From: a virus | Lineage: Duplodnaviria; Heunggongvirae; Uroviricota; Caudoviricetes | Reading direction: 5' to 3' (one strand) | IMG/VR virus record: IMGVR_UViG_3300047202_000060 | Length of the DNA: 64,000 bases | Part shown: positions 30,546 through 53,513 of the stretch, piece by piece | Layout: the number at the start of each line of letters is the position of its first letter | Numbering within the stretch: position 1 is the stretch's first letter | The notes under the pieces: generated by a model | What the model saw: the letters and a program-made list of their open reading frames with translations, nothing else | Told to the model about the DNA's origin: nothing | Databases searched by the model: none | Program-made: the position numbers and the translations under genes

Positions 30546-30583
30546 CGTCCTATATAAACGTTTACTAAGAAACACCATGCTCA
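30546..30583 (-). promoter_or_regulatory. class I element, near-consensus
   Basis: cgtcctatataaacgtttactaagaaacaccatgctca; provides TGA stop of 30581..30898 and box 34 nt upstream of 30516. Confidence 0.45.
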
Positions 30584-30898
30584 GGGATTCCAATACTTAT
30601 CATCAACACTATCTAATAAAGTAGAAACATAATCGTCTATTATTCTCTCGATAACATAATGAATCATTTCGTGATTAATGGTACTGACTACGTGTTTAGG
30701 TGTTGTTTTTCCGTAAATATACATACCGTTTTTAGTATCAGTAGTACCAAGAGAAGAACAATAAAAGTTATTCCATTCCCATCTTGAAACAGAAACCCTC
30801 TTTGTCCTAAATCGTTTTCTTGCAATCTCAAGCGTCACAAACCCATCGAAAATATCTACCCTTTTAGGATAATAGAAGTGAAATTCCCTTCGACCCAA
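30581..30898 (-). CDS. mini HExxH metalloprotease-like protein (paralog set of four)
   Basis: TINHEMIHYVIER. Confidence 0.45.
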   Translation of the reverse strand: MGRREFHFYYPKRVDIFDGFVTLEIARKRFRTKRVSVSRWEWNNFYCSSLGTTDTKNGMYIYGKTTPKHVVSTINHEMIHYVIERIIDDYVSTLLDSVDDKYWNP

Positions 30899-30901
30899 AG
30901 T

Positions 30902-31435
30902 TTAACTCTTCCTTATATATTTTTGCATCTCTTCTGTTGTTCCCTTTCGAATCTCACCGTTCTTTTCCATTATTGAGTACGCCCAGACATCAAGTTGCAT
31001 TAAATCAACTTTGTTTCCCAAGCACCATTCAAGAGCCGAGAAAACAATTGGTCTTTCCATACTGTCATATTCGTCAGATTCCAAAAGCCAGCGTTTGCCT
31101 TTAGGATATTCATAGGCATACTTCTCATCCCAGATATTGCGAATAACAACTTTCCATCTTTTAGGAAGAGGAATATCTTTCGGCAAGTAAGCAAACTTTG
31201 TTCCTTCCATCCCGATAAACATCGTTCGGTTAATCGGATTCCAATAGCATCGAGTAATATCTCCCTTTCTGTTACGTCCTTCATGAGTATATTTCTCCCA
31301 GAGTCTAGCTTCAAACAAGCGTACCTCAATCACATCTTCTTTTGTCACCGACTTAAAAGCTTTTATTGCATCCTCTTTAGAGAGACTTGAGGGAACGAGA
31401 ACGTTATGAATATTCAGAGTAACCATACTTATCAT
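30902..31435 (-). CDS. hypothetical protein
   Basis: 177 aa; ATG 28 nt downstream of TTTATAA box lying inside upstream HNH ORF; antisense ORF 31000..31329 judged spurious. Confidence 0.5.
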   Translation of the reverse strand: MISMVTLNIHNVLVPSSLSKEDAIKAFKSVTKEDVIEVRLFEARLWEKYTHEGRNRKGDITRCYWNPINRTMFIGMEGTKFAYLPKDIPLPKRWKVVIRNIWDEKYAYEYPKGKRWLLESDEYDSMERPIVFSALEWCLGNKVDLMQLDVWAYSIMEKNGEIRKGTTEEMQKYIRKS

Positions 31436-31958
31436 CTTTGTAAGAAGAATAGTTATCGTCCCTTATAAACGTTGTCCCAGAACCATCGTGTTCGTTTTCT
31501 GGGTGATGAAGTTCTCTATGACATCTGCAACAGAGAAGTTGTATTTTACCATCTAAAACCAATTTAAGAAAAACTTTTGTCATATATAAATTACAATCAT
31601 CATGTTTTTCCTTAGTTTTTGGGTCAAGATGGTGAAATTCGAATACTGCCAAACAACCAATATATCCACATTTTTGACATTTGCCACCGAGTAATTTTAT
31701 CAACTCTTTTTTTCGTTTGTGTTTTCTCCCGATAACATATTCTCTAACCCATTTTTTGTTTCTTTTCTGCCAACATCTTTGTGATTCACGAACTTTCTCC
31801 AAATTGTTTAAACGATATTTTCTTCTATTTTGTGCAACTTTTTCTTTATTATTTTCATTCCACTTCTTTGACCTACAATTTTTAGAACAATATTGTTGTA
31901 TTCTATGATAATATGGATTCTGAATAAATTCTGTGCCACACACTTTACATTTTGGCAT
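31404..31958 (-). CDS. HNH endonuclease family A with N-terminal Zn ribbon and basic repeats
   Basis: MPKCKVCG...CSKNC; LLGGKCQKCGY...FHHLDP...LLCCRCHRELH; NEHDGSGTTFIRDD encoded by class I element. Confidence 0.6.
   Translation of the reverse strand: MPKCKVCGTEFIQNPYYHRIQQYCSKNCRSKKWNENNKEKVAQNRRKYRLNNLEKVRESQRCWQKRNKKWVREYVIGRKHKRKKELIKLLGGKCQKCGYIGCLAVFEFHHLDPKTKEKHDDCNLYMTKVFLKLVLDGKIQLLCCRCHRELHHPENEHDGSGTTFIRDDNYSSYKDDKYGYSEYS
31457..31494 (-). promoter_or_regulatory. class I element copy embedded in-frame in HNH ORF
   Basis: cgtcccttataaacgttgtcccagaaccatcgtgttcg. Confidence 0.4.
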
Positions 31959-32008
31959 AATAGAATGTATGTCGAACTACTATATAAGTCTTATGTTTTG
32001 CTCAATAA

Positions 32009-32542
32009 TCAACTAACGTAATCCTTACTTGCATCCGAATATCCGCAATTTTTACATTGAAACCCATATCGAGTTATAATCATTGTTCCTTTACACTTAG
32101 GACACGCCCTCGTCCAAACATCAACATTGAAAATATTAGACTTATTAGATTTTCTTTGCCGTGATGGTATTTGTTGCTTATCGAAGTCGCCTAACGCAAA
32201 CTTCTTGTGTGCATCCGATTCTTCTTGTTTCTCTAATACATTAGTATGAGAACCATAAAAAATTTTACAATGTTCCTTCCACTCTTTATCTGTCATACTT
32301 TCTGGGTCTTGTTTATTAGTAGATGAATCGCTTACTTCAAATATATAAGTGAAAAATGCTATTACAAAACATCCAACACCTAACCATGTAAAAACATCAG
32401 AAATATGTATTTTGTTTTGGGCATCTCTAAATCCAGCTTCCGAATTTACTGCACTATTTACATCCCAAGATACCATAGCTATCATAGCTATAAGGAAGCA
32501 CAACATCCCCAGACCACATATTATTGGTGTTATTTTCATCAT
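32009..32542 (-). CDS. membrane protein with C-terminal Zn ribbon
   Basis: two N-terminal TM helices; CPKCKGT...CKNCGY. Confidence 0.5.
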   Translation of the reverse strand: MMKITPIICGLGMLCFLIAMIAMVSWDVNSAVNSEAGFRDAQNKIHISDVFTWLGVGCFVIAFFTYIFEVSDSSTNKQDPESMTDKEWKEHCKIFYGSHTNVLEKQEESDAHKKFALGDFDKQQIPSRQRKSNKSNIFNVDVWTRACPKCKGTMIITRYGFQCKNCGYSDASKDYVS

Positions 32543-32667
32543 CTATCTCTCCTATGTGCGCTTGCTTTCATTTCTCGTGCTATGTAGATGTCTAAGCATT
32601 CTTTGTAGTGACCGCATGAACCGTCACAGGTAGATTTCAAATCTCCTAAACATTTAGGATTATCCAT
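32539..32667 (-). CDS. unannotated 42-aa Cys-rich leader ORF
   Basis: MDNPKCLGDLKSTCDGSCGHYKEC; AGGAGA SD for next gene inside its 3' end. Confidence 0.3.
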   Translation of the reverse strand: MDNPKCLGDLKSTCDGSCGHYKECLDIYIAREMKASAHRRDR

Positions 32668-32696
32668 ATCATTCACTACCTAGAAGTATAGCTCCC

Positions 32697-32731
32697 CCCT
32701 ATATAAAGTTTGCCCCAGAAACACCACGCCC
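32697..32731 (-). promoter_or_regulatory. class I element copy preceded by poly-G
   Basis: cctatataaagtttgccccagaaacaccacgccc. Confidence 0.4.
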
Positions 32732-32797
32732 AAAACCCTATGGGTATCGCTGGTTTGCATGGACTTTCCCATCACCTCACCCATACTTTGCTCTTTT

Positions 32798-32813
32798 TTA
32801 ATCAGTTGATTAA
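32798..32813. repeat. 16-bp palindrome TTAATCAGTTGATTAA
   Basis: inverted repeat copy. Confidence 0.55.
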
Positions 32814-32916
32814 ATATACGATTCCCGTGTATGTCGCTTCCAAACTACTTCGAACTTTTTCGTTCACCGCAACCTTTATAAGTCGCCATCTCAACCAGCT
32901 TATTTAGTGATAGAGA

Positions 32917-33240
32917 ATGCTTCGATATTGGATAAATCGTTGGCGAAAAATCGGATTGAAAGTTAGCAAACGATTCGAAGGAAGAACAAAAGAGATGCAA
33001 ATTCTTGGTTCTATTATCGGAAAAAAATGTAAAATATGTGGAAGAATGAAAAATATAAGATACCACGAAATTCATGGAAAAAAACACGAACATTCTACAA
33101 GATATATTCTTAATCACGCTTTAGATTTTGTTCCTTTATGCCAAAGGTGTCATAGTACACTTCATTATGCTAAAAGAGTTGAGAAATTGCCCGAAATTCG
33201 CCGAAAGAGATTAGTTCGATTGCTTTCGATTTTAACTTGA
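32917..33240 (+). CDS. HNH endonuclease family A, plus-strand insertion
   Basis: CKICGRMKNIRYHEIHGKKHEHS..LDFVPLCQRCHSTLH. Confidence 0.6.
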   Translation: MLRYWINRWRKIGLKVSKRFEGRTKEMQILGSIIGKKCKICGRMKNIRYHEIHGKKHEHSTRYILNHALDFVPLCQRCHSTLHYAKRVEKLPEIRRKRLVRLLSILT

Positions 33241-33690
33241 TGGACTTTTAACGATGGCAGGAACGCCCGCCTTTCAATCTGCCCCGAAATTTACTCTGAT
33301 TGTCAAGTTCGATTCAGTTCGGTAGTCAGATGGCTCTCACCCAACCCCTCGACAGGGTAGCTTGGATTTTTAATCAGGTGATTAATAGTTGAACTTTCAG
33401 TTGTAAAAAAAGTGTAACTAAAAAGGTCACGCAAAAAAACCCCAGAAAAAAAACCTTGAGGCTCACTCGACTTTTACATAAAGCGCACATAGGCGAAAAA
33501 TGACATAAAATTTGTTTTTGGTAGCCAGTTTTTTTTCGGCGGCTTTTGGCACGGGTTCCGAGCCGTTTTCGTTTCTCCGTTTCAGCGGTCTCTCAAACCA
33601 AATTACTAAGATTCTCGGAAAAGAAAATAATGGAAAACGTCTTTTTTGCCAGCGGTTTTTAGCCTCTAGGGGAAGCTCTAGGTAGGGGAG
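33241..33690. other. 450-nt ORF-free region with GC-rich islands and poly-A/T runs; candidate origin or non-coding RNA locus
   Basis: no ORF of 60 aa or more on either strand; strand switch; GC islands gccagttttttttcggcggcttttggcacggg and ttgccagcggtttttagcc. Confidence 0.3.
33370..33385. repeat. 16-bp palindrome TTAATCAGGTGATTAA
   Basis: inverted repeat copy. Confidence 0.55.
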
Positions 33691-33975
33691 TCATTGCCAT
33701 ATTTCCCTTAATATCTCGTGGTAGTACAATCCGAGACTCTCTAAGTATCTGTCGTATTTTTTAGGTTTTGTCTTGCTCATGTTAGTAATTATCCAATGAA
33801 GAAACTCATGGTTGAGAACACAACACATATCTTCTACACTAAGCCATTTTTCTTGGTCGGTAATCTCCATTTTTGCAGAACCTTTCTTAACCCATATCTT
33901 GGCGCGCCTGTGATTTTTAGGCGTACTCTTTCTCACTTTAATAACGAGATTGTCTAGGTTTATCTCTTCGGTCAA
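33691..33975 (-). CDS. mini HExxH metalloprotease-like protein
   Basis: VLNHEFLHWIITN; junction cassette at 33965. Confidence 0.45.
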   Translation of the reverse strand: MTEEINLDNLVIKVRKSTPKNHRRAKIWVKKGSAKMEITDQEKWLSVEDMCCVLNHEFLHWIITNMSKTKPKKYDRYLESLGLYYHEILREIWQ

Positions 33976-34135
33976 GTAAATTGCACAGTCTCCTTAAATT
34001 TATCCCTCAAAAAAAGTGAGAGTGCTTTATCGGTATTTTCATTATAGATTTTTTCATATTTCTTTATCCACTCTTCACATTCTTTAGTTGTCATAGCTAC
34101 TCCTTTTTTGTATTTTTTAGTGTAATATTTCCAAC

Positions 34136-34516
34136 TCAAGTAAACTGCACCTTTTCCCGAACAAACTCTTCTTTTGAAGACATCTTTAGGACTTTGGAAA
34201 ATCCTCTAACAGAATGTGGTCTGTTTGAAATCCCATTAGGAACAATACTTTCTATCATTATTTCACCACAAACAGTTTCTACTAATGGCTTTCCGTTTTC
34301 CTTTGCTGTATATTCAATATAAAGCCTAAACTTTGAGTTCTTTTGCCAAGCCTTATATAGACTCGAAACATCGTCCATATCGAGAAAGATTTCCCATTCG
34401 TCACAACCAACAGGGACGGGAAAACTCATCGCTTTCTTAATTGACATCTCTACTGCTACAACACTATCAAATTTCTTCTTACCCTGAGCCAGATAAGCCT
34501 TTGTAAGTTTACTCAA
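34136..34516 (-). CDS. hypothetical protein, EKVQFT tail
   Basis: 126-aa ORF. Confidence 0.5.
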   Translation of the reverse strand: MSKLTKAYLAQGKKKFDSVVAVEMSIKKAMSFPVPVGCDEWEIFLDMDDVSSLYKAWQKNSKFRLYIEYTAKENGKPLVETVCGEIMIESIVPNGISNRPHSVRGFSKVLKMSSKEEFVREKVQFT

Positions 34517-34646
34517 GTGAACTGCACCTTTATACGCCGTCTAAATTTCTTTGCTTGTTTTATCCATTTCCTTCTTCTACAAAGTAACCGCATATATTCT
34601 TCTACATCATCAAAAACATCAATATATGAATCATTAGGGATTTCTC

Positions 34647-34895
34647 TCATGTGAATTGCACCTTCTCCTTCTCTGGTGGAAATGCCAATTCAAAACTTTT
34701 CAAATATTTTATCGTTGTATAATTAAGATGATGACATTTTGGACATTCATAAATAAAGATTGATTCCCAATTACGACCTACCTCTTCTCCAATGGCAACC
34801 ATCTTTTCACTATCATAAGGACAAATACAAAACTCATCCATATCTACATTCAAGTAAACTGCACCTTCACAGGTTTCTTCTGTTCTTCTTTCCAC
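34647..34895 (-). CDS. Zn-ribbon protein, EKVQFT tail
   Basis: CICPYD...CPKCHH. Confidence 0.5.
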   Translation of the reverse strand: MERRTEETCEGAVYLNVDMDEFCICPYDSEKMVAIGEEVGRNWESIFIYECPKCHHLNYTTIKYLKSFELAFPPEKEKVQFT

Positions 34896-35059
34896 TCTTT
34901 AGCTAAATATTTCCATTTCATAATACGTGAAGCTCGTTGTCTTTCTTTATACCATACTATTGCCTTTCTTTTTCGTTCTCTTTCATTCCTTTTAGCCACT
35001 ATTACCATTGCACAAGTCAAACCACAAACTATAGCTACCATAGAAAGCAAAACTATCAT
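34850..35059 (-). CDS. small TM protein, VKVQFT tail
   Basis: N-terminal hydrophobic helix then basic tail. Confidence 0.45.
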   Translation of the reverse strand: MIVLLSMVAIVCGLTCAMVIVAKRNERERKRKAIVWYKERQRASRIMKWKYLAKEWKEEQKKPVKVQFT

Positions 35060-35250
35060 GAGAATTTCACCTTTTCCTTTTCTTTTAGATTCTCATAACA
35101 TCGCCTTGCTTTTCTACGAGTTAACCCACCTTTATATCTTGCCTTGCAAACTTTACAGAAGCATTTTCTAAGAGGCGTATCAACAGAGCATAATTTGTCT
35201 CCATTGCATTCGAAAGTTCTTCCACAGTCCCAACAAATCATTTCAATCAT
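35056..35250 (-). CDS. Zn-ribbon protein, EKVKFS tail
   Basis: CWDCGRTFEC...CFCKVC. Confidence 0.5.
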   Translation of the reverse strand: MIEMICWDCGRTFECNGDKLCSVDTPLRKCFCKVCKARYKGGLTRRKARRCYENLKEKEKVKFS

Positions 35251-35501
35251 GTGAACTCAACCTTCTCTGAGTCTCCTAGCGTTAAGAAAACGTGATTATT
35301 TTTCGGCTCAAACATTGTGCCGTCCATTTTTCTATTCCAGACACACACCAATGATTCTTTACTTATAGAGTCACATCTTCGAACGAATTGAGCACCGCAT
35401 TCATTACAAAGCATATTCACTTCTTTCTTGCATATATCTCGTGAGTGACATATAGGACATCTAGTGAAGTTTAGTTTTAACTCTATTGGTATTTTACTCA
35501 A
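35247..35501 (-). CDS. Zn-ribbon protein, EKVEFT tail
   Basis: CPICHSRDIC...CNECG. Confidence 0.5.
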   Translation of the reverse strand: MSKIPIELKLNFTRCPICHSRDICKKEVNMLCNECGAQFVRRCDSISKESLVCVWNRKMDGTMFEPKNNHVFLTLGDSEKVEFT

Positions 35502-35746
35502 GTGAACGACACCTTCATGGGTCTATTTATTCTTTTCACAGTCACCTTTAGACCTAGATAATTCGATAAATACATTGAGTGTTCATACGCATCATCATCA
35601 CAAAATTGGGCGGTATTAAGTTTTCCTTGTATTTGATAGAAAAAAACGAACTCTGCCTCTTTAGGGCATTGGTCGTTATGACCGTGCATTGCTATACATC
35701 TAACTGGTCCATTTTTTCTTATGCTATCAATAATTGTTCCTATCAA
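35498..35746 (-). CDS. hypothetical protein, MKVSFT tail
   Basis: 82-aa ORF. Confidence 0.5.
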   Translation of the reverse strand: MIGTIIDSIRKNGPVRCIAMHGHNDQCPKEAEFVFFYQIQGKLNTAQFCDDDAYEHSMYLSNYLGLKVTVKRINRPMKVSFT

Positions 35747-36036
35747 GTGAATTGCACCTTTTCCTGTTTTTTATCTAAGGTTGTTATAACTGGAATAGTT
35801 TCTGTTGGTGCTCGAACATCTGGATATTCTTTACTCTCGACAACTACGTATAAAATTGCCCTCATATAGTTGTGCGTTATTTCGACAACTTTAGCATCTG
35901 CTGGGAACCTGTTCTCTATAATCATGAAATTGTCTTTGCCATTATGACTAACAAAACTTTGCATTGAACGTTTGGTAGGCTTTAATCCCATATCTTCACA
36001 AGAACAATCTAAGAAAGGCATAAAAACTCTTCTCAT
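35743..36036 (-). CDS. hypothetical protein, EKVQFT tail
   Basis: 97-aa ORF. Confidence 0.5.
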   Translation of the reverse strand: MRRVFMPFLDCSCEDMGLKPTKRSMQSFVSHNGKDNFMIIENRFPADAKVVEITHNYMRAILYVVVESKEYPDVRAPTETIPVITTLDKKQEKVQFT

Positions 36037-36236
36037 GTGAACTGCACCTTAACAATTTTACTATCAAGAACACACCATTTATACATCTCACATTTTTCAG
36101 TACATGGCATATACTTTGATGGGTAACATTTATATCGTCCTTCCTTTTGGGCTTTAACCCATATTTGAGCATCTTTCTCATTCATGTGAACTGGACCTTC
36201 TCCCTTTTGCCCATAAGTGCTATATAAACCGTGCAA
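36033..36236 (-). CDS. hypothetical protein, VKVQFT tail
   Basis: 67-aa ORF; further cassette copies at about 36345 and 36525 mark unlisted ORFs under 60 aa. Confidence 0.45.
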   Translation of the reverse strand: MHGLYSTYGQKGEGPVHMNEKDAQIWVKAQKEGRYKCYPSKYMPCTEKCEMYKWCVLDSKIVKVQFT

Positions 36237-36616
36237 TGTTCTTTTAATCTACAAGAGTTTATACAGTATTTTTCCTTATCACTCGAATCATGTACTGTGC
36301 ATCCAGAAATACGCCAATCATTTTTTACAACTTTATAATGTATCAAGTAAATTGTACCTTCTCATTTTCTTCTATTTTTATCAAATGCTTCTTTTCTTTT
36401 TCTCCATAATGGTTAATTTGAGCCTTTGTTCCATGAGCACAAAATAATCTGCCAAACTTATCAGACTTTATTACGCATCCTTTGACAGTAAATGTGCAAC
36501 AAGTACATCTATAAGTTGTCATGTAAATTGAACCTTCTCTCTTTGATAATGTTTAGCAAGCCGTCTAAACCAGCGAAGCCGCCTGAAAATAAGTGGGTAG
36601 TTTATATCCTTTCTCA

Positions 36617-36853
36617 TCATGAAAATTGCACCTTTACTCCTAATACAATTACCTCTTTTACTTCTCTAGCTGTTACAGTTATTCCTTTCCACTCTGGGTG
36701 CTCAATTACTCGAACAAAAAGAATTGTCTCATCCGTGCTCATAAATGGACTAATTATATAACGAGAACCTATGGAAGTTACTTTGCCATGAAGTGTTTCT
36801 TCGCCACGCTCAAACACTACTACATCGCCAGTTTTTATCTTATCTATTTTCAT
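36617..36853 (-). CDS. hypothetical protein, VKVQFS tail
   Basis: 78-aa ORF. Confidence 0.45.
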   Translation of the reverse strand: MKIDKIKTGDVVVFERGEETLHGKVTSIGSRYIISPFMSTDETILFVRVIEHPEWKGITVTAREVKEVIVLGVKVQFS

Positions 36854-37168
36854 GTGAATTGAACCTTCTCCCTTTCTTTTATGACATCATAAAATCTTAT
36901 TGCGGCTCACATTCTACAAAGTTCGAAGTCATCTCTTTTGCCATCACAGCCGTTTGAGTCGAAGCATTCGCTGACATATGGACAGATGCCATTCTTCTTG
37001 AAAAATTCTAGTTCTTCATACTTATTCATGTGAACTGCACCTTTATTAATTCAGTTTTCTCTCTTTGTTTTTTCTGCATCCAAACTGCAAGCGCAACGTA
37101 CCAAGATGCTTTTCTAACTATATATGCGTCATAGAATGCTGAACCTTTAACAAAACATCTAGGGTCGC

Positions 37169-37363
37169 TCATGTAAATTCAACCACTTCTTTTGTGCATT
37201 GTTCAAACGAATATTCTTTCTGGCATTTCATACACCAGATTTTTCTAGGAATAACAAGATTTAAACCAGAACCGTCATTTAATGGTCTAAGGAAATACCC
37301 ACCTACCCCTTGAAGTCCTTCCTCATCGCCACACTTGGGACATTTCCACTTGTTGCCGCTCAT
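37169..37363 (-). CDS. Zn-ribbon protein, EVVEFT tail
   Basis: CPKCGDEE...CMKCQ. Confidence 0.5.
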   Translation of the reverse strand: MSGNKWKCPKCGDEEGLQGVGGYFLRPLNDGSGLNLVIPRKIWCMKCQKEYSFEQCTKEVVEFT

Positions 37364-37629
37364 GTAAACTCTACCTTCTCTTTTCCAGATATTAAGTCAC
37401 AAACCTCAAACTCTTTATTAGCTTTTCTCAAAGTTTTTATAAGGGGTCTATAGTGTTCTTCACAGAGATAAACCCATATAGCATAAAGAACAATTTGACG
37501 GTCCGCATCATAAACGTAATCAAATACTACTCTATATCTAGCTTTCTTTCCACATTTAGCAGACCCACATTTAGATTTTTTCTCATCATTGTCTGGTTCT
37601 CTTTTCACATCATACATTTGCGTAATCAT
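37360..37629 (-). CDS. hypothetical protein, EKVEFT tail
   Basis: 89-aa ORF. Confidence 0.5.
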   Translation of the reverse strand: MITQMYDVKREPDNDEKKSKCGSAKCGKKARYRVVFDYVYDADRQIVLYAIWVYLCEEHYRPLIKTLRKANKEFEVCDLISGKEKVEFT

Positions 37630-37768
37630 TCTCTAACAAACCCCGCGCCCTTACATCTTCTACAGGGAACCCTAATCCACCTATCAGGTTGACTTGCAGT
37701 TAGAAAAGGATTTCTCATAATGAGATAACCTATTCCCTTACAACATGGACATTCCCTTAATGGTCTCA

Positions 37769-38017
37769 TCATGTAAACGTCACCTTCTCCTTAGCTTTCC
37801 AACGCGCCTTTTCCTGTTCTGCTCCTTCGGCTACCCCGTCATCATGCCCTGAGTCATAGCCGTTAGTATATCCTTCTTCCTTTCCCTTATCATATCCCTC
37901 TTGAAATGCTTCTTTCTTAGACTCTATAATCGCCAAATCTACTAGGTCTTGCAAATCTTGGTCTAAGTTGTCCATGATTTGTTTTAATGTCTTGGACTTT
38001 CGAAGATGGATACTCAT
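37769..38017 (-). CDS. acidic Gly/Tyr-rich hypothetical protein, EKVTFT tail; start trimmed from 38047
   Basis: ATG 31 nt downstream of TATATAAA box. Confidence 0.45.
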   Translation of the reverse strand: MSIHLRKSKTLKQIMDNLDQDLQDLVDLAIIESKKEAFQEGYDKGKEEGYTNGYDSGHDDGVAEGAEQEKARWKAKEKVTFT

Positions 38018-38046
38018 TTTACATCTGGGAATACTAAGGCGAACCA

Positions 38047-38081
38047 CCTATATAAACTTTGCGCTAGAACCACCTTACTCA
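38047..38081 (-). promoter_or_regulatory. class I element copy
   Basis: cctatataaactttgcgctagaaccaccttactca. Confidence 0.4.
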
Positions 38082-38181
38082 TTTTTCCGCAACCTTTATA
38101 AGGTAGAGTTGACTACTTGTGCGTTAGTGCGGGCATTAAGATTTTTTTTCAATGCATGGTCCCCGCCACACGAACGAATTT

Positions 38182-38197
38182 TTAATCATCTGATTAA
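38182..38197. repeat. 16-bp palindrome TTAATCATCTGATTAA
   Basis: inverted repeat copy. Confidence 0.55.
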
Positions 38198-38250
38198 AAG
38201 AATTCATGGTTAATGCCTATTTACACCTTTCGCAACCTTAATAAGCAACC

Positions 38251-38694
38251 TCATAAAATATTAACAATGTGATTCTTTTTCTCAAGAACAAACTTGACTA
38301 CAAAATGCCACTTCTTTGCAATTACATCATAGACATAGAATGACTTATGAATGTTATCAAGAGCCTTTTTAGTTTCACGCCCTTCAATGTTATTCAGCAC
38401 TTGATGAAGAACTTCATGCTCAAGAATCTCTTCTGCACATTCCGCATAATCCTCACATTCTGGACGAGCAAAAAGTTTTATTTGAAAAAATCCCGTATAG
38501 CCACCCGCAACACAATCCTTAAAATATATATTAATTTCGGATTTATTACAAATCCCTACATAGATTCCTACAGAGTTTTCTTTTGTTATAGCAGATTTGA
38601 TTTTTAGCCAATAATCTCGAAAAGCGGGTAAGGAAACACGTATAAAATCAAATAGAACCCGTTTCTTTCTCTTTAAATCTGTCATTTCTACCAA
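38251..38694 (-). CDS. mini HExxH metalloprotease-like protein
   Basis: EILEHEVLHQVLNN. Confidence 0.45.
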   Translation of the reverse strand: MVEMTDLKRKKRVLFDFIRVSLPAFRDYWLKIKSAITKENSVGIYVGICNKSEINIYFKDCVAGGYTGFFQIKLFARPECEDYAECAEEILEHEVLHQVLNNIEGRETKKALDNIHKSFYVYDVIAKKWHFVVKFVLEKKNHIVNIL

Positions 38695-38711
38695 AGAAAG
38701 AAAAGAAAAAC

Positions 38712-38732
38712 AAGTATTTAAAGGTTATGGTT
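38712..38732 (-). promoter_or_regulatory. class II promoter element
   Basis: agtatttaaaggttatggttg. Confidence 0.4.
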
Positions 38733-39027
38733 GATATTCATCTAATTTTGCGGCTCTAAATGTAATAGCTATTTTTGCAGTTTTACTATACGCTTTTTCT
38801 ACATTTACTTTTGCTGGAATAAACACAAAACTTCTACGTCTTTGCGGGTCTGCTGGTGAAGGATTATTCAATTCTTCAATTAAAATACCGCCCGTGAACG
38901 TCAATATTTCTAATTTATATCCACAATGAGGACAACAAACAGGTGGATTAGCATTTTGAAGTGTAGCTCTTCCGTGACTAATGGCTATTCTTCTTTCTTC
39001 TTTTACCGTGTATGTTTCTTTAGGCAT
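38725..39027 (-). CDS. Zn-ribbon protein
   Basis: CCPHCGYKLE. Confidence 0.45.
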   Translation of the reverse strand: MPKETYTVKEERRIAISHGRATLQNANPPVCCPHCGYKLEILTFTGGILIEELNNPSPADPQRRRSFVFIPAKVNVEKAYSKTAKIAITFRAAKLDEYQP

Positions 39028-39686
39028 TATGGTTCACGCCGTTTCTCTTTGCCTCTTGACTTATACTTGCCACCTTCACGGATTGACTTACGTTTTAACT
39101 TTCGTATTTTATCTTCCTCTTCCTCGAATTCTTTCCAATCTTCCATACTTGCTCGTTCCCAAGCATCCATTTCGTCTTGTAACTCTTTACTCATTGGTCC
39201 ATCTTTTGTCATTCGTTCCTTCATCTTTTTTGGACCTAAAGGACAATCTTCCATACCACACCATTTAAGATGGTCTGGATTACCCATTTGATGATTTTGA
39301 TAACAGCAAGGATTACATTCTTGACAAGCTAATTCACTACCGAACCACGCACAATGAGCATGAATTGGTTTAAAGAGTTCTCCTTCTTCTGTCTTTAACG
39401 CTTCTAATCCTTTTTTTAATTCCTTTTTCTCTCTAGGAGAAATTTCTTCTCGTGGCTGATTTAGATAATCGATCAATTCTTGGTTAAATTTAACTGGATA
39501 TATTTCTTGCTTAGTTGGAATTAACGGCTGTGGAAATTGAAGAGTTAACATTGGTGCTGATGTAGGACATTGATGAACAAGCCCATAATGGTAAACTGCC
39601 CCGCAATTTTGGCATTTTAACATATGCTTCGGGTCACGACATCCAGTTCCACAATTAGTGTCGCTCAAGTTGGATTCAACACCCAA
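39027..39686 (-). CDS. Cys-rich multi-Zn-finger protein with basic tail
   Basis: CGTGCRD...CQNCG...CQECNPCC...; KKELKKG. Confidence 0.5.
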   Translation of the reverse strand: MGVESNLSDTNCGTGCRDPKHMLKCQNCGAVYHYGLVHQCPTSAPMLTLQFPQPLIPTKQEIYPVKFNQELIDYLNQPREEISPREKKELKKGLEALKTEEGELFKPIHAHCAWFGSELACQECNPCCYQNHQMGNPDHLKWCGMEDCPLGPKKMKERMTKDGPMSKELQDEMDAWERASMEDWKEFEEEEDKIRKLKRKSIREGGKYKSRGKEKRREP

Positions 39687-39963: not shown

Positions 39964-40596
39964 TTACGGAACTTTGTCTTCTGGATTCCAATGAGTTTGT
40001 TCATATTTTAAAAGCCAACTTTTATAACTTTCTTCTGTTCTACGCATTTTCTTTGTTTGTGATGTTGATTGATGGTTTATTACAATGTGAATTGCTGGTG
40101 CGTGTACTATATCTATTTCTCCATCTTTATCAAAAACTCTCCTATGATCTGTTGACCAATGCACGGTTTCTGTTTTTCTAATACACGCATATCTTAGATG
40201 TAATGCATAAGGTTTATACATTAGCCAATGCATACGATAGACTTTTTCATTAAAGTTTTCAAGTGTTTTACGAACGTCATCTCCCCATTCAACTATATAT
40301 TCATCTGAATCTATAATTAGACCCCAATCTCCATTATTGAGATATTTAAGAGATTCCGTCCGAGACTCGTGTTGATGCATAACGGACAATTGAATATAAG
40401 AAACTTTAGATTTGGAAATTTTGGCAAATTCTTCTATTACTTTATCTGTTCCATCATCTGAGTGGTCTGGACCTTCAATACCGTGCCATCTGCCGTCAAA
40501 ACACATTATCTCGTCCACTTTACCATCTATACTTTGAAGACACGGTAATATAACTTCTGAACATTGATATGTCATAATTATTGCTACAAGTTTCAT
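39964..40596 (-). CDS. glycosyltransferase family 2-like
   Basis: N-terminal KLVAIIMTYQCSE; acidic DSDEY motif; 210 aa. Confidence 0.5.
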   Translation of the reverse strand: MKLVAIIMTYQCSEVILPCLQSIDGKVDEIMCFDGRWHGIEGPDHSDDGTDKVIEEFAKISKSKVSYIQLSVMHQHESRTESLKYLNNGDWGLIIDSDEYIVEWGDDVRKTLENFNEKVYRMHWLMYKPYALHLRYACIRKTETVHWSTDHRRVFDKDGEIDIVHAPAIHIVINHQSTSQTKKMRRTEESYKSWLLKYEQTHWNPEDKVP

Positions 40597-40865
40597 TAGT
40601 CAATTACCCCTTTTATATGTAATTTTCGATGCATACAATCACCATACATGTGATTTGCTTCTCTTGGTTCTATTTCTACTCGTATATCTTTTCTTCCATT
40701 AAATTGATTTTCAAGTGCCTTTTTATGGTGGGTTGCTATCTGTTCTTTTAAATCAACAGAATAAAGTTGTGGAATCCAAATTACATCTTTTCCCTCATAT
40801 TCTCTAAACCAAACCCAAACAAGCCAAATAGGAATTTTAGTCGTAGTAAAGTCGCTTCCTATCAA
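40596..40865 (-). CDS. hypothetical protein
   Basis: 89-aa ORF. Confidence 0.4.
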   Translation of the reverse strand: MIGSDFTTTKIPIWLVWVWFREYEGKDVIWIPQLYSVDLKEQIATHHKKALENQFNGRKDIRVEIEPREANHMYGDCMHRKLHIKGVID

Positions 40866-41223
40866 CGCCTAACTCTAGTAAAGCTTTCTTTACAACATCT
40901 ACGAATTCCAAGTTTTGACGCGCTCTAGGACATTTCTCTTGTATCTCATTCCAATAATGGTCCCAGCCGTGTTCCAGACTAAAGAGTATTAATGCCGCGC
41001 AAGCTAAAGTGTTTGAACGAGACATTCCAGCCATACACCTAATAATCACTCTTTCTCCGCACCCCAATAAGTTTGCAATCAGAATAATCTTTCGTTTTAC
41101 AACCTCAATCGTGTTTTCTGCTGAATCATTTAAATCTCTCACATCTACGATAATTGTACCTTCTGGTGTGTAACTTTCGAGCATATTGCAAGTTCCTAGA
41201 TTGTTCCATATCCAATATACCAT
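40837..41223 (-). CDS. dual-specificity (CX5R) protein phosphatase-like
   Basis: P-loop IRCMAGMSRSNT matches HCxxGxxRS signature. Confidence 0.6.
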   Translation of the reverse strand: MVYWIWNNLGTCNMLESYTPEGTIIVDVRDLNDSAENTIEVVKRKIILIANLLGCGERVIIRCMAGMSRSNTLACAALILFSLEHGWDHYWNEIQEKCPRARQNLEFVDVVKKALLELGVDRKRLYYD

Positions 41224-41687
41224 TATTTCTCATTCCTCACTTTAGATTCTCTTAATCTCGTTATATCATTCCAAGAAAGACCCAAAAATCTCATACAAAA
41301 ATGGGTGAAACTATGACAAGACTTGCATAGTGGAGCAAAATCTTCTTGATGGTTTATTATGTATAATCTTGAAGAACTATGAGGATTTCCGTGTATTTCG
41401 TGAGCGTGTATTCTGTAATTATTTGGACTATACCCACAAATCAAGCATTTATTCCCCAAAAGCGAGACAATTTTTTTATTATACTTCTCGTTAGTTCTTC
41501 TTGCATTTATACGATGCCGCTCTAAATAACGAATTCTATGATTGGCATCGTAAGATTCTGTCCTCTTTCTTTTACAATCTTTACAAAGATATTCATAATT
41601 TCGTTTTCTGTATTCTGTCCAGTTTGTTCCTAAGATAAGGGCACACCCACAATCCTTGCATTTGTCTTCACGCCATTTATTTGCCAT
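41223..41687 (-). CDS. HNH endonuclease family A with N-terminal Zn ribbon
   Basis: CKDCGC...CKDCKRK; LLGNKCLICGY..HAHEIHGNPH..DFAPLCKSCHSFTH. Confidence 0.6.
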   Translation of the reverse strand: MANKWREDKCKDCGCALILGTNWTEYRKRNYEYLCKDCKRKRTESYDANHRIRYLERHRINARRTNEKYNKKIVSLLGNKCLICGYSPNNYRIHAHEIHGNPHSSSRLYIINHQEDFAPLCKSCHSFTHFCMRFLGLSWNDITRLRESKVRNEK

Positions 41688-41718
41688 CTAAACATCACCA
41701 TTATATAATACACAGATG

Positions 41719-41745
41719 GAGTATTTAAGTCTTACGGTTTAAGCC
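41719..41745 (-). promoter_or_regulatory. class II promoter element
   Basis: gagtatttaagtcttacggtttaagcc, box 34 nt upstream of 41687. Confidence 0.4.
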
Positions 41746-41969
41746 GCTTCCCGTGGAGAATTTAAATAGTCTTTTAACGCACTATTTTGGTTAATGTCCT
41801 TCTGAGTATAGCCATAGTAGGTGTCAAATACCAAACCTGTTCTACATGTGGGATTAATGCACATCCACTTACAATCGACTCTACGACCTTCTTTTTCCTC
41901 ATTAACTCTAATAAGGAATGAGTCACATTTTGGGCACTTAAGTAATATAGGGTCTTCTTCATCACTCAT
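41739..41969 (-). CDS. Zn-ribbon protein
   Basis: CPKCDSF...CINPTC; overlapping same-strand ORF 41774..41965 judged spurious. Confidence 0.5.
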   Translation of the reverse strand: MSDEEDPILLKCPKCDSFLIRVNEEKEGRRVDCKWMCINPTCRTGLVFDTYYGYTQKDINQNSALKDYLNSPREAA

Positions 41970-42098
41970 CTTTTAATTGCTCCTTCCAACACCTTTTACA
42001 TAACCATGAAAATGCATGATTCTCTGGAATCCAAGTGATATAAATCTCTTGTATAAGAATATCGTTTCCGCAACGATCACAAGATTTAATACAAACAC

Positions 42099-42338
42099 TC
42101 ATGGGTATCTCTTCTTAAATTCTTCTTCCCATTGTTTACGTTTTTCTATTTTCTTTGCGTGTTGCTTACAGTATTCACCATTAGGACCATAACCACGTTT
42201 ACGACTACATTGAAAATAATGCCAACCCGACCAATCGACTACTTCCTCTATACATCGAGTAGGGTCTTCTGGAATACCTTTAGGATTACCACCCCATTTG
42301 TCATAAACTCGTTTCTTTTGTTCAGACATATTTTTCAC
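42099..42338 (-). CDS. hypothetical basic protein
   Basis: 79-aa ORF, box 23 nt upstream. Confidence 0.45.
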   Translation of the reverse strand: MKNMSEQKKRVYDKWGGNPKGIPEDPTRCIEEVVDWSGWHYFQCSRKRGYGPNGEYCKQHAKKIEKRKQWEEEFKKRYP

Positions 42339-42359
42339 TACATATTAGATAGGTATAAA

Positions 42360-42394
42360 CCTTAATAAACTTTGTGGTAGAAAGCCCATATTCA
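42360..42394 (-). promoter_or_regulatory. class I element copy
   Basis: ccttaataaactttgtggtagaaagcccatattca; supplies TGA stop of 42392..42658. Confidence 0.4.
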
Positions 42395-42658
42395 TTTGCC
42401 CCTTCTATATTTTCTTTTCCAAAAAATCTGTACTAAACATAACACCATACTTGCAATGCAAAGGAATGATGAAATCAAAGCTCCTAGACCATAATTTCCA
42501 ATAGCAAAAAGGATATAACCTATAGTTAGTGCGAATAAGAAATTTATAGACAGACCACTAAGATTCTTTCTATTTTTGTATGCTGTAATGATTTGTGGTA
42601 TATTAGCCACAAAAAAGAGAACATTCCCTATATCTATGAGTGTTAGAAACGGAATCAA
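42392..42658 (-). CDS. small membrane protein (three TM helices)
   Basis: hydrophobic profile. Confidence 0.45.
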   Translation of the reverse strand: MIPFLTLIDIGNVLFFVANIPQIITAYKNRKNLSGLSINFLFALTIGYILFAIGNYGLGALISSFLCIASMVLCLVQIFWKRKYRRGK

Positions 42659-43077
42659 ATTTTCTCCTCTCTCGTTATATCTTTCAAAATTTCCTCAAGT
42701 TCTCTCTTAGTATGAATTATTTTATTACAAAGCGACTCTAGGAATATATTTTTAAGAGCGACAGGACACAGAAGTATCGTATATAAACCAAGTTGCCTAG
42801 CATATTCTAATTCCATCATCGTGCCACCGCAGAAGGTTTCTAAATCTGTAACAACCAAAAGGATGTCACATTCCCTGATCTTTCGAAAATCATATGCCGT
42901 AATTACGCCTTTATACTCTTCGGTATAATTTGGCGGTATTATCGGGCTATCCCCAAATCCAGCACCAAATACTTCAATCTTATATTTAGCAAACATTTTC
43001 TTGAATTTGGCAATTCGTTCAAAGGCTTCTGTAACACACACATCAATAGCACTTGCGTAGTATAAATGGAAGGTCAT
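42655..43077 (-). CDS. nucleoside 2-deoxyribosyltransferase-like (Rcl/DNPH1-like fold) protein
   Basis: VFGAGFGD...CDILLVVTDL...GGTMMELEYARQLG resembles NDT signature; weak. Confidence 0.4.
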   Translation of the reverse strand: MTFHLYYASAIDVCVTEAFERIAKFKKMFAKYKIEVFGAGFGDSPIIPPNYTEEYKGVITAYDFRKIRECDILLVVTDLETFCGGTMMELEYARQLGLYTILLCPVALKNIFLESLCNKIIHTKRELEEILKDITREEKI

Positions 43078-43304
43078 TTCTTATTCCTCAAAAGTTTTTC
43101 TATTTCCTTTTGGCATTCCAGACACTTTACTTTGAAATCTTCTGTAGTTAACCATTGATTTAACCAATTACATCTTCGTTTCCAAATTCCTTTTACTAAC
43201 TTGTCTTCAAAACAACATGGGGGAACAGAACCTTTTGCAGTTTTCCAGAGTTCTGTTGCTTCTTCTACCCTTCCTTTCTCAATTCTTTCACGTATTGTGG
43301 TCAT
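43074..43304 (-). CDS. hypothetical Cys-containing protein
   Basis: 76-aa ORF. Confidence 0.4.
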   Translation of the reverse strand: MTTIRERIEKGRVEEATELWKTAKGSVPPCCFEDKLVKGIWKRRCNWLNQWLTTEDFKVKCLECQKEIEKLLRNKK

Positions 43305-44278
43305 TTTCGATTCCTCAATCTTCTAAAGAATGCAACTATTCTATTCTCTTTGTATTCAGCTTCTACTATCTTTTTTACTATTGTATTAGTCTCTTTCTGT
43401 TCAATATGATGATCTTGACAATAATCGCAGTAAAGACGGTAAAAATCATATTCGGGGGCACTACACATATGTTTTTCCATTTCCTTTTTAATGTATGTCG
43501 CAACTACTGGCATAGCATCACGTTTTATTGAGAATTTTTCTCCCAAATCTGCATAGGCTTTATCAACCGCACCCATAGCTTCACTCAAAGGCAAAGGTGG
43601 ATATACTGGTCTGCCTTTCTCAAGTTTAGGTTGTCCCCTCGACTTAGCAGTATCCAATTTTTCTTTAGCATATAACGGGTTTCCTTCGGCAGTAAGTGTT
43701 TTCAAAACAACTCCTTCTCTGTGTTCTTTTTTACAAAGTTCCAGCATTTCATCTCTATAATTGTAAAGTGATTCCATACTGGTAAATCGTCCTTCTCCAA
43801 AGAGTTGAACACACTTCATACCATAATGGAAACAAATTTGATGAATCTGTTGATAATTAAGAAAATGATTTCCGTCAAAAATATCGAAGACTATATATTC
43901 TGTTTCTATATGATTTTCTATTCGTGTTGGAGACAATCCTTTTCTCAGAAGTTCTCCAAAAACTGTATGAGTTGGATTTTCTATAAGATATTCCAAAATT
44001 GCTTGTCGTTCCTTAGAATACTGAAAATCTCTTGTAATAGAATCTTCTGCTTTTTCCCTATTTCGACTAGAAACAACTAAATATCTTATTATTGGCTTAT
44101 GAAAGATTTTTCTCAATGATGTTTTCAGTCCAGTTATTGGCTTCATCCAGATAGCTAGACATGAACCATCACGCTTTTCGGTCCAGTAAATATAATGACC
44201 TAGAAGCACTCTACCTTCATTTGGAAGATGCTGAATTTTCTCTAATTCCATATAACGCCAAACTTTCATGAGTACCAC
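43301..44278 (-). CDS. ATP-dependent polynucleotide ligase, Rnl1-like RNA ligase candidate
   Basis: motif I KRDGS in TEKRDGSCL (compare T4 Rnl1 KEDGSL), motif IV REGVVLK, motif V LYAKEK. Confidence 0.6.
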   Translation of the reverse strand: MVLMKVWRYMELEKIQHLPNEGRVLLGHYIYWTEKRDGSCLAIWMKPITGLKTSLRKIFHKPIIRYLVVSSRNREKAEDSITRDFQYSKERQAILEYLIENPTHTVFGELLRKGLSPTRIENHIETEYIVFDIFDGNHFLNYQQIHQICFHYGMKCVQLFGEGRFTSMESLYNYRDEMLELCKKEHREGVVLKTLTAEGNPLYAKEKLDTAKSRGQPKLEKGRPVYPPLPLSEAMGAVDKAYADLGEKFSIKRDAMPVVATYIKKEMEKHMCSAPEYDFYRLYCDYCQDHHIEQKETNTIVKKIVEAEYKENRIVAFFRRLRNRK

Positions 44279-44568
44279 ATTTCTTTCTTCATTATCATCA
44301 TTTGTTTAAAGTGACAAGAAGTACATTCCCAAATTGTAAGATAGATTATTATACTGTGTTCGGGTGAATCAAATGTTTCGCTTATCTGGGCATCAATAAC
44401 CTTGCTATAAACATGACCATCACATCTGAAAATGGCATTACCTAGAGATTCCAATATATAGAGAAATCTATCTCTCAATGTGGCTGGACGTTCAATCTTA
44501 CAGAAAATAACTTCGCTAGGCTGAGAGAAGATAGCTTTATTTCTTCTCATAATCATTTCTTTGAACAT
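44266..44568 (-). CDS. hypothetical protein
   Basis: 100-aa ORF. Confidence 0.4.
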   Translation of the reverse strand: MFKEMIMRRNKAIFSQPSEVIFCKIERPATLRDRFLYILESLGNAIFRCDGHVYSKVIDAQISETFDSPEHSIIIYLTIWECTSCHFKQMMIMKKEMWYS

Positions 44569-44570
44569 AT

Positions 44571-45278
44571 TTACTTTTCCTTCTTTTTGGTTTCTTTCAT
44601 TTTCTTTTTAAGTTCGGCTATATGAGCGTCTTTCTTCTTTATATCTTCTATAAGTTTCGCGGTTTCAGGGTCAATCAACGGTATCATTTCTTCTTTTGTT
44701 GGCATTAAAGTTTGCGGTGTCTTTATTTGAGCCAAACTTGCTCGGCGTTCAGCTTCCATTACGGCACGTACCTTCTTCTGTTGCTCATATAATTCCGCTT
44801 TTCTAGTTTCCTGAAAGTCTGCTTTGGTCTTTTCCAAAATTTCATGTCTGTAAATATCTGCATTAGTTATAGTATCTGGAATTACTCTCATATTATCAGG
44901 CACACCCATTTCAAGTTTTCGTTCACGTTTTTGAGTTGCTTGGGTAGCCCTAGTTTGATAATTACGACACTTTTGACACATTGATTCTTGTGGAACCATA
45001 ACATTTTCAACTTCTGTATTCGACTCCATTTTTAATCTCCTTTCCTTTTCTTCGAAACTTCTAGTTGAACCTTCTATCTTTGTGCCCATATTATTCCATT
45101 CGGCTGGAATAGTTCTATGAAATATTTTATTACATTTAGGACAAGCAAAAACACCATCAGAAGGTTTCATCAACACAGTTCTATCATCAGAACAAGTATG
45201 TTTCTTGAAAACGTAAACCTTCAACATAGATACCCAATAATCTTGTCCACATGACATACATTTTTGTTTTTGTTTCAT
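44571..45278 (-). CDS. Zn-ribbon plus coiled-coil protein
   Basis: CMSCG...CPKCNK; C-terminal lysine-rich coiled coil. Confidence 0.5.
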   Translation of the reverse strand: MKQKQKCMSCGQDYWVSMLKVYVFKKHTCSDDRTVLMKPSDGVFACPKCNKIFHRTIPAEWNNMGTKIEGSTRSFEEKERRLKMESNTEVENVMVPQESMCQKCRNYQTRATQATQKRERKLEMGVPDNMRVIPDTITNADIYRHEILEKTKADFQETRKAELYEQQKKVRAVMEAERRASLAQIKTPQTLMPTKEEMIPLIDPETAKLIEDIKKKDAHIAELKKKMKETKKKEK

Positions 45279-45307
45279 ATTAAATCACTATTAAGATAAT
45301 AACTTAC

Positions 45308-45343
45308 CTCTATTTAAACTTTGCGTAAGAAAGACTATGCTCA
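45308..45343 (-). promoter_or_regulatory. class I element copy abutting junction cassette
   Basis: cctctatttaaactttgcgtaagaaagactatgctca, box 32 nt upstream of 45278. Confidence 0.4.
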
Positions 45344-45516
45344 AGTAAACTGCACCTTCACTTTAGCATTTTTAGGTCCGAAATAATATTTCTCAAACAT
45401 TATCTTTACACACCTGTCCATCTTCAATCTTTTACCCTCTCCAAATGAATGAATTACAGCTTCGACATATCTCGTATGCCATTTTATCTTTTTCATAAGC
45501 ATAGCAATCGATTCTG

Positions 45517-45837
45517 TCATGTAAATTGCACCTTCTCTCTATCATGCATAAACCTGTAATATTCATGAGCAAGCCATACAAACCATCTCATACAAGCTCT
45601 ACAATTGCTACCGCATTTTGTAGTAGGCGGTGCAACGCCATTATACGATTTTGTTTGCCCCATCGTCCCGCCATTCTCGGAGTCCATATCCTTTCTTGGG
45701 TTTAATGAAGACAAGTGGACCATGTGTAAAAGACATTTCTCTAGCTTCCCGCTGTACTCTTGGTATAAATTGAATTTTATCTTGTACACTCCATTCTGTT
45801 TTTTGGTTGGTTTGAATATCTTTCTTGAGAAGACCAT
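45517..45837 (-). CDS. hypothetical Cys-containing protein, EKVQFT tail; N-terminal extent uncertain
   Basis: overlaps 45641..46387 by about 197 nt in another frame; internal Met at about 45663. Confidence 0.4.
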   Translation of the reverse strand: MVFSRKIFKPTKKQNGVYKIKFNLYQEYSGKLEKCLLHMVHLSSLNPRKDMDSENGGTMGQTKSYNGVAPPTTKCGSNCRACMRWFVWLAHEYYRFMHDREKVQFT

Positions 45838-46387
45838 CAGCTATAATTTCGCCGCAACATATTTCACCATATTGAATAAGTTTATCGGTTACAGTCTGCA
45901 TCAATTCCTTGTATTCTTCTGGTGTAAATATCATTGAAAGATTAAGTGCTGTTCCAGTTATATGTACTGGAATATCCTTTTCATTAAAAAGAATCTTCGT
46001 TCTCTCTTGCCATTTTCTCCACCACCATTGAACCCATACATGAATAAATTCGGCTATTTCTTTAGTACCTTGTAAGTCTTCATGTAATCCATATAAACGA
46101 TTTGTAATTAATATAGAAAGAACATCTTCCAAATCACGAACTTCTGCAAAAGAGTGTTCTCCCTGATGGATTTTTAATTCTTGATTTTCGGATTCATCTA
46201 ATTTTTGGTGATTTCTCTCAAGATAACCTATATAATTTCGAAAATCTTGAATGCAAATTTCATAAACTTTGCGATCTTCGCCATTAAGACTTAATGATGG
46301 ACAAATCTTATCCAACTCGTTAAAAATCAAAGTATTAATCCAGAAGGTCATATCTGGGCTAAGAGTCATTAATACCGCCTCTTCCAA
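45641..46387 (-). CDS. hypothetical protein
   Basis: 248 aa with normal composition; antisense ORF 45605..45937 judged spurious. Confidence 0.5.
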   Translation of the reverse strand: MEEAVLMTLSPDMTFWINTLIFNELDKICPSLSLNGEDRKVYEICIQDFRNYIGYLERNHQKLDESENQELKIHQGEHSFAEVRDLEDVLSILITNRLYGLHEDLQGTKEIAEFIHVWVQWWWRKWQERTKILFNEKDIPVHITGTALNLSMIFTPEEYKELMQTVTDKLIQYGEICCGEIIADGLLKKDIQTNQKTEWSVQDKIQFIPRVQREAREMSFTHGPLVFIKPKKGYGLREWRDDGANKIV

Positions 46388-46662
46388 AAAGTTCTTTCTA
46401 ATCTATCTCTTTGGGTAGAATCGAATGTAGAATTATTTTTAGGTTGCAAAAGAATACTTGGGTCTGCATATCCAAAAATATTATCAAATTTATCAGAAAT
46501 CAGTTTTCCCTCAAGTTTATTTATAGCACTATGAATTGTCTCATGAGTAATACCCATTATAATCAAGTCTTCAATCCATTTATTAACATCACCAATATAG
46601 ATTGTCTCTCTACTATCTGTCAACATTATCCAACCATTATTCAAAAATTGAATATCATTCAT
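46369..46662 (-). CDS. mini HExxH metalloprotease-like protein
   Basis: IMGITHETIHSAINKLEG. Confidence 0.45.
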   Translation of the reverse strand: MNDIQFLNNGWIMLTDSRETIYIGDVNKWIEDLIIMGITHETIHSAINKLEGKLISDKFDNIFGYADPSILLQPKNNSTFDSTQRDRLERTFWKRRY

Positions 46663-53481: not shown

Positions 53482-53513
53482 CTCATTTCACCATATTATA
53501 TAATAGTAGTTCT

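Follow-up and report, generated by a model that had tools for sequence, protein, structure and literature searches.

Four small HExxH proteins of a Caudoviricetes genome fragment as probable minimal zincin-like metallohydrolases

The 64,000-nucleotide stretch of the IMG/VR virus record IMGVR_UViG_3300047202_000060, analysed here at its full length (the window), encodes four small proteins, P1 to P4, with the HExxH motifs HEMIH, HEFLH, HEVLH and HETIH. An original prediction had placed their open reading frames (ORFs) at 30581..30898, 33691..33975, 38251..38694 and 46369..46662, and the listed ORFs of the minus strand contain all four at exactly these positions. We judge it probable that the four genes belong to a single, highly diverged group whose products are minimal, free-standing metallohydrolases of zincin-like type, most probably zinc endopeptidases. 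Judged by their sequences, they appear to be new families within a known superfamily, and distantly paralogous mini-zincins.

Conservation of the motif and of a downstream aspartate

The HExxH motif is invariant in 51 sequences of the P3 family, nine of the P4 family and four of the P2 family; conservation across orthologs, a point on which the prediction could be checked, thus holds in P2, P3 and P4, three of the four proteins. P3 has 16 close homologs, and when 1.84 billion representatives were searched exhaustively with a profile, 40 clusters were returned, one of them a spurious repeat protein (P0036, 3,694 aa, E = 4.5e-22 over 17 stretches) that was excluded, its RELVYQV resembling HEVLHQV but lacking either histidine. 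Identity to P3 falls to 22% in the 51-sequence family alignment, where the only invariant columns are H90, E91, H94 and D110, and where family members show Q, S or N in place of the histidine that lies three residues past the P3 aspartate (LDNIH). Eight homologs and one IMG/VR contig were found for P4, with MGITHE..H, E51 and FDNIFGYA.P..LL invariant, while the P2 orthologs on metagenome contigs (L001-L007), at 90%, 81% and 59% identity, keep NHEFLHWI, Y-D and GLYYHEIL. Pattern scans of GTDB genomes for further relatives found none, and IMG/VR gave none for P3 and one contig for P4.

A pan-family alignment (A7; MAFFT, 54 sequences from the four groups, mean column identity 24%) has the H, E and H of the motif and one Asp as its sole invariant columns. 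This Asp lies 15 to 16 residues past the second His (P1 D96, P2 D75, P3 D113 in ORF numbering, P4 D60), and we regard it as the likely third zinc ligand, the residue that the original prediction had proposed to look for. HExxH had been described as the only recognisable feature of the proteins and as lying in their C-terminal half. The first statement is superseded, as all four also share an upstream hydrophobic strand and the element h-D-x-h, 15 to 16 residues past the second His, and the common signature can be written as a hydrophobic strand, about 10-17 residues, h-h-x-HExxH-x-h-h, x15-16 and h-D-x-h. The second does not hold for P4, where the motif occupies residues 40-44 of 97.

The conserved residues also bear on what the proteins may do. 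RNase YbeY, which is metal dependent, and other HExxH enzymes hydrolyse bonds other than peptide bonds, and the four proteins could in principle be non-peptidase or non-catalytic zincin derivatives, namely small zinc-binding adaptors or inhibitors that attach to a host protein, or hydrolases of non-peptide substrates. The invariant Glu argues for catalysis over metal binding alone, and we consider derivatives of this kind unlikely.

Predicted fold of P3

AlphaFold2 run on P3 with the 51-sequence alignment gave a model with a predicted local distance difference test score (pLDDT) of 90.1 and a predicted template modelling score (pTM) of 0.79, whereas the run with the 16 close homologs was unusable (pLDDT 43). 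The model consists of a long helix (residues 2-34), three strands (42-45, 60-64 and 68-73), the HExxH helix (80-100), a short helix (103-109) ending at the invariant Asp, and a three-stranded sheet (113-143). Zincin-like metallopeptidase (MPTase) domains have been described with a core of an N-terminal helix, a three-stranded sheet, the HExxH helix and a second helix that carries an acidic ligand (PMC5512222). As modelled, P3 is a minimal zincin core in which Asp replaces Glu, with a C-terminal sheet added. A fold as a non-enzymatic helical bundle had been named as the contrary outcome, and the P3 model, the only one of the four to which this check applies, shows an alpha/beta zincin-like core and no such bundle.

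Known structures tabulated with the P3 model, each with its listed value, were TTHA0227 (2ejq, 4.9), Acel_2062 (3e11, 4.6), PprI/IrrE (8sln, 4.2), CapP (7t5t, 4.2), projannalysin (4jix, 3.8), Wss1 (5xbn, 3.6), Spartan (6mdx, 3.4) and selecase (4qhf, 3.2). Foldseek searches of PDB and BFVD gave nothing at E<=0.001, and sequence searches of PDB gave nothing significant. We count among the closest known proteins the minimal zincins of the Zincin_1/DUF1025 type (Thermus thermophilus TTHA0227, 2ejq; Acidothermus Acel_2062, 3e11); the family model itself (PF06262) gave no match.

A possible membrane anchoring through the long N-terminal helix of P3 was considered and rejected, a transmembrane-like Kyte-Doolittle score being reached by just 3 of the 51 family members. 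Most members of the P3 family are predicted to be soluble.

Comparison with known families

The proteins had been likened to minimal SprT/Wss1-like or ImmA-like metallopeptidases, an identity that could not be established. SprT-like proteins such as Wss1 and Spartan use a His downstream of HExxH as third zinc ligand, and ImmA/IrrE proteases have a partner gene for an XRE-type helix-turn-helix (HTH) repressor beside the protease gene. A SprT-like signal does recur below threshold: P1 matches the Pfam family (PF10263) at E = 0.04 with 14.2 bits, under the gathering score of 25.6 bits, the best P3-family member reaches E = 0.11, and a mini-HExxH protein of the related contig L001 reaches E = 2.4e-4; P2, P3 and P4 themselves gave no match to PF10263. 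The other weak family match of P1 was to phrog_24204 (E = 0.0013). For ImmA/IrrE (M78, PF06114) there was no Pfam match up to E = 10 and none in PADLOC, and Pfam found no HTH domain in the neighbouring genes 30902-31435, 38725-39027, 39027-39686, 46663-46920 and 45641-46387. The candidate Asp ligand and the missing HTH partner gene argue against membership in either family, and the resemblance of the four proteins to zincins is limited to the superfamily level.

The sub-threshold signal nonetheless raises an alternative, in which the proteins would be DNA-dependent proteases of the SprT/Wss1/Spartan type that strip covalently or tightly attached proteins from the DNA of phage or host, in the service of replication and not of an immunity conflict. 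We hold this to be quite improbable. Every match stays below the Pfam gathering score, the invariant candidate ligand is Asp where that family has His, neither a zinc ribbon nor another DNA-binding domain is present, P4 is acidic, and the four genes do not lie beside replication genes; a link to DNA-protein crosslink repair is likewise not seen.

The remaining zincin families differ in other ways. The minigluzincins and selecase (projannalysin, 4jix; selecase, 4qhf) are archaeal, have no sequence similarity to the four proteins and use another ligand on the second helix, and proteins of the type described here shrink to 78-97 aa. ImmA/IrrE proteases, including PprI and CapP, the latter associated with cyclic-oligonucleotide-based antiphage signalling (CBASS), are much larger and multi-domain, and their third ligand differs. 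The zincin-like MPTase domains of polyvalent proteins, which include the C-terminal domain of ArdC and for which an early role in host conflict has been proposed (Iyer et al. 2017, PMC5512222), have the minimal core in common with the P3 model. Those domains, however, sit inside giant multidomain proteins and have Glu as ligand, whereas the window proteins are free-standing, 94-144 aa long, with Asp and with several divergent copies per genome.

Three further possibilities were examined and rejected. Peptide deformylase is characterised by the motifs GxGxAAxQ, EGCxS and HExxH, with a Cys as ligand, and the four proteins do not show this set of three motifs, which excludes them from the phage mini-deformylases. 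The match of the P4 family to the HEN1 methyltransferase (E = 1.4) is at chance level, P4 being far too short for a methyltransferase, and the Kelch_1 and DegQ matches in the P3 family are sub-threshold and fall on short C-terminal strands or on a helix.

Relatedness of the four groups

Direct pairwise similarity among P1-P4 is weak (BLASTP E 0.003-0.6 in a database of 144 proteins), yet the four are mutual best matches within the window. Profile comparison is more informative: against the P3-family profile, hhalign gave probabilities of 94.7% for the P4 family, 90.6% for P1 and 82.7% for the P2 family, over 33-37 columns that include the Asp for P1 and P4 (P1 spans 37 columns including its LD element). 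The direct comparison of the P4 and P2 families was not significant (4.5%), and P3 therefore acts as the hub of the group. A hidden Markov model (HMM) of the P3 family (A5) was searched against 2,740 six-frame ORFs of at least 40 aa from the window and 15 related loci. The first matches outside its own family were P1 (E = 7.9e-7), the P4 family (1e-6 to 6e-5; 5.9e-5 for P4 of the window) and the P2 family (6e-5 to 1e-3; 1.6e-4 for P2 of the window), followed by a gap, with the next match only at E = 0.79. When P1, P2 and P4 were shuffled with H, E and H held in place (100 shuffles each), none of the 100 reached the real hhalign score (real scores 31.5-39.9; shuffle mean 14, maximum 21-26), which means that the similarity goes beyond the motif alone. 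The presence of four dispersed paralogs, as first proposed, is thereby backed at the level of distant paralogy by hhalign (82-95%), HMMER and the shuffle control.

The motif is also more frequent than expected. A six-frame count of the window found HExxH nowhere on the plus strand and five times on the minus strand, always in the coding frame, namely in the four flagged proteins and, as HECGH, in the 588-aa ORF 8439-10205. Within-protein shuffles gave an expectation of 1.6 for all minus-strand proteins (P = 0.03) and of 0.63, with four observed, for the 93 proteins of up to 150 aa (P = 0.0035). A chance occurrence of HExxH in unrelated small phage ORFs, perhaps in some of them only and especially in P1, would be favoured by the shortness of the motif with its 1.6 expected occurrences, by the lack of a homolog of P1, by the weak pairwise scores and by the P4-P2 result, but the excess in small proteins, the invariance of the motif in three families, the Asp aligned across all four groups, the ranking of P1, P4 and P2 directly after the P3 family and the shuffles that never match the real scores make it very improbable, and largely refute it for P2, P3 and P4.

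The four genes

P1 (30581..30898, minus strand; HExxH codons 30659-30673) is a mini-zincin-like ORF of 105 aa if read from TTG 30898 or 85 aa if read from GTG 30838. Its start is uncertain: TTG 30898 has a Shine-Dalgarno-like stretch, AAGGAAGAG, 7 nt upstream, and the public gene call is the 85-aa form beginning at GTG 30838. HEMIH corresponds to residues 76-80 and the candidate ligand Asp96 to 30611-30613. Among 5.8 billion proteins the sole match of P1 was P1 itself.

P2 (33691..33975, minus strand, 94 aa; HExxH codons 33796-33810) is the final gene of a translationally coupled array of tiny genes, with a TTG start that overlaps the upstream TGA. NHEFLHWI spans residues 55-62, the candidate ligand Asp75 is encoded at 33751-33753, and the conserved GLYYHEIL is found at the C-terminus. 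P3 (38251..38685, minus strand; HExxH codons 38404-38418) has 144 aa when started at ATG 38685. This is the most likely start and matches the public gene call and all orthologs; the listed ORF reaches TTG 38694. Its invariant Asp, D110 from the ATG, is encoded at 38356-38358. P4 (46369..46662, minus strand, 97 aa; HExxH codons 46531-46545) is preceded, 9 nt upstream, by an AGGAG ribosome-binding site and contains the sequence MGITHETIH, the invariant Glu51 and the invariant FDNIFGYA element with Asp60 (46483-46485). P4 is acidic, with an isoelectric point (pI) of 5.6, whereas the other three proteins are basic.

Proposed mechanism and role

In the mechanism that we propose, one Zn2+ would be bound by three residues: both His of HExxH, which the active-site helix carries, and the Asp 15 to 16 residues further on, with which the following short helix ends in the P3 model. 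The substrate of other zincins docks as an extra strand on an edge strand, and a substrate peptide would do so here on the edge strand that immediately precedes the helix (FQIKLF in P3, IYIG in P4 and MYIYG in P1). The proteins may serve as early effectors that cleave specific proteins of the host or of rival elements, in host takeover or anti-defence, and not as virion-maturation proteases, because the genes lie in long arrays of tiny, coupled genes on one strand and two of the four are cassettes that vary between syntenic relatives. Several divergent and partly exchangeable copies per genome in small-gene arrays would fit early host-directed effectors.

Several points weigh against the assignment to zincin-like endopeptidases. 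P1 has no homolog, and its start is uncertain. A confident model was obtained for P3 only of the four proteins, and the H/H/D geometry is that of a candidate site. P4 and the 78-aa family member P0064 probably have no backing helix, because only about 40 residues precede the motif, and they may be incomplete enzymes on their own. No conserved partner gene indicates a substrate, and Pfam, PHROGs, NCBIfam and PADLOC assign the proteins to no curated family at threshold.

A more far-reaching version of the zincin-like reading, which we put forward as a doubtful proposition, is that the four proteins define a clade, not described before, of ultra-small 'Asp-zincins' (HExxH-x15/16-D, 78-160 aa) that radiated in one group of uncultured large phages as an early effector-protease toolkit. 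Each paralog would then have its own target among the immunity or housekeeping proteins of the host, and the shortest forms (P4 and P0064) would be oligomeric or completed by a partner.

If active, the proteins would rank with the smallest zincin-type hydrolases known and would represent a phage-specific radiation lacking from Pfam, PHROGs, NCBIfam, PADLOC, PDB and the sequenced isolate phages. Their notable traits are the very small size, the Asp as probable third ligand and the multiplicity in one genome. Several divergent copies, two of them swappable, are the pattern expected in an arms race with the host and make the genes reasonable candidates for anti-defence and host-takeover screens, in which the H/E/H/D tetrad offers clean point mutants. 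Alignments A5 and A7 could seed a family model, by which such ORFs would no longer be annotated as 'hypothetical'.

Genomic context

P2 and P3 are syntenic in the related contigs L001, L004 and L006, and P3 is a core gene of this phage group. P1 together with the two genes upstream of it (30581-31958, minus strand) is missing from the syntenic relative L004, and the P4 cassette (46369-47823, minus strand) is missing between flanking homologs in L001; P1 and P4 are thus accessory, present in some relatives and absent from others as cassettes. In addition to P4, the P4 cassette holds a DUF6899 gene (47173-47676, Pfam E = 3e-12) along with three short ORFs, two of them about 85 aa long and one of 48 aa. 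The P4 homologs in L009, L010 and L011 have different neighbourhoods. DUF6899 was considered as a conserved partner, as it lies close to P4 in the window and, in L014, close to a gene of the P3 family, and was rejected since it is absent near the P4 homologs in L009 and L010.

Relatives also carry extra mini-HExxH genes without an ortholog in the window, at 4389-4814 (plus strand) in L001, 3761-4108 (plus strand) in L014 and 975-1322 (plus strand) in L015. The L001 gene encodes a 141-aa protein with HELEH, the one with the sub-threshold SprT-like match given above. The other gene, located in L014 and L015, had not been called; its ORF of about 115 aa (SYIGIG...HELLH...LLDS) immediately precedes a gene of the P3 family. 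Neither the HELEH protein nor the HELLH ORF matched the P3-family HMM at E<1.

The tiny genes are joined by a recurrent junction. The pattern AGGTNNANTTYWCWTGA, with at most one mismatch, occurs at 43 sites where 0.52 would be expected, and every one of them is on the coding strand. The full element is about 20 nt long, (GA)GAAGGTG-CA(A/G)TT(C/T)AC-(A/T)TGA; in it a Shine-Dalgarno-like GAGAAGGTG is followed by a fixed spacer and then by a start codon, either ATG or TTG, overlapping the TGA stop of the gene upstream. Clusters of it are found on the minus strand at 820-2019, 11487-14387, 16826-17211, 19614-20910, 24256-24272, 34136-37785 and 45341-45533. As a result of this element, (E)KVQFT, KVEFT or KVDFT forms the C-terminus of dozens of tiny proteins, and an ending of the same kind, DEKVTFT, is found in the related contig L012. 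The element could provide translational coupling and could also act as a recombination site that shuffles small-gene cassettes.

Downstream of P3 lies a non-coding gap of about 200 nt (38048-38250), unusually long for this tightly packed region, in which AAGGTTGCG(A/G)AA is present twice. The gap may have a promoter or regulatory function and launch the downstream small-gene array. Scans for sigma-70 promoters and terminators around the four genes gave sites no commoner than in shuffled sequences.

Other features of the window

The window has a GC content of about 35%, and the minus strand holds 128 of its 144 greedy ORFs and nearly all plausible genes. Identifiable phage-like genes encode an RNA ligase (43301-44278), a PAPS-reductase-like protein, a RecA/DnaB-like ATPase, a MoxR/CobS-like ATPase beside a VWA protein, glycosyltransferases and many HNH-like small proteins. 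The same proteins recur on metagenome contigs 86-152 kb long and on a single IMG/VR viral contig (121.5 kb), and megablast and tblastn searches of 50,697 GenBank phages gave zero relatives and no DNA-level match to the window. In our reading the window derives from a large phage that has not been cultured.

The fifth minus-strand motif, HECGH (9915-9929), lies near the N-terminus of the 588-aa protein 8439-10205 (minus strand), which carries a VWA domain at its C-terminal end (Pfam E = 5e-8) and has no relation to P1-P4. The gene adjoins that of the MoxR/CobS-like AAA ATPase at 6924-7820 (minus strand; phrog_249), and the two look like a CobT/CobS-like pair or a metallopeptidase-VWA protein with its MoxR partner.

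Many small proteins with HNH-like Cys/His endings (e.g. CANCHRIKH and CQRCHSTLH) are mutually similar. They are encoded at 138-473 and 32917-33240 on the plus strand and at 41223-41687, 2868-3356, 4134-4844, 7959-8393 and 24583-25029 on the minus strand, and they cross-match one region in the relative L006. Because some of them lie on the opposite strand, multiple insertions of homing-endonuclease type are suggested.

Finally, the minus-strand region 52175-63575 holds, adjoining glycosyltransferase-like genes, a run of mid-sized proteins of which several end in a similar tail, ...PHP, ...ARPHP or ...PKPHP. The tailed proteins, encoded at 55241-56410, 58765-59523, 59532-60587 and 62235-63575 (minus strand), are possibly a paralogous enzyme family.

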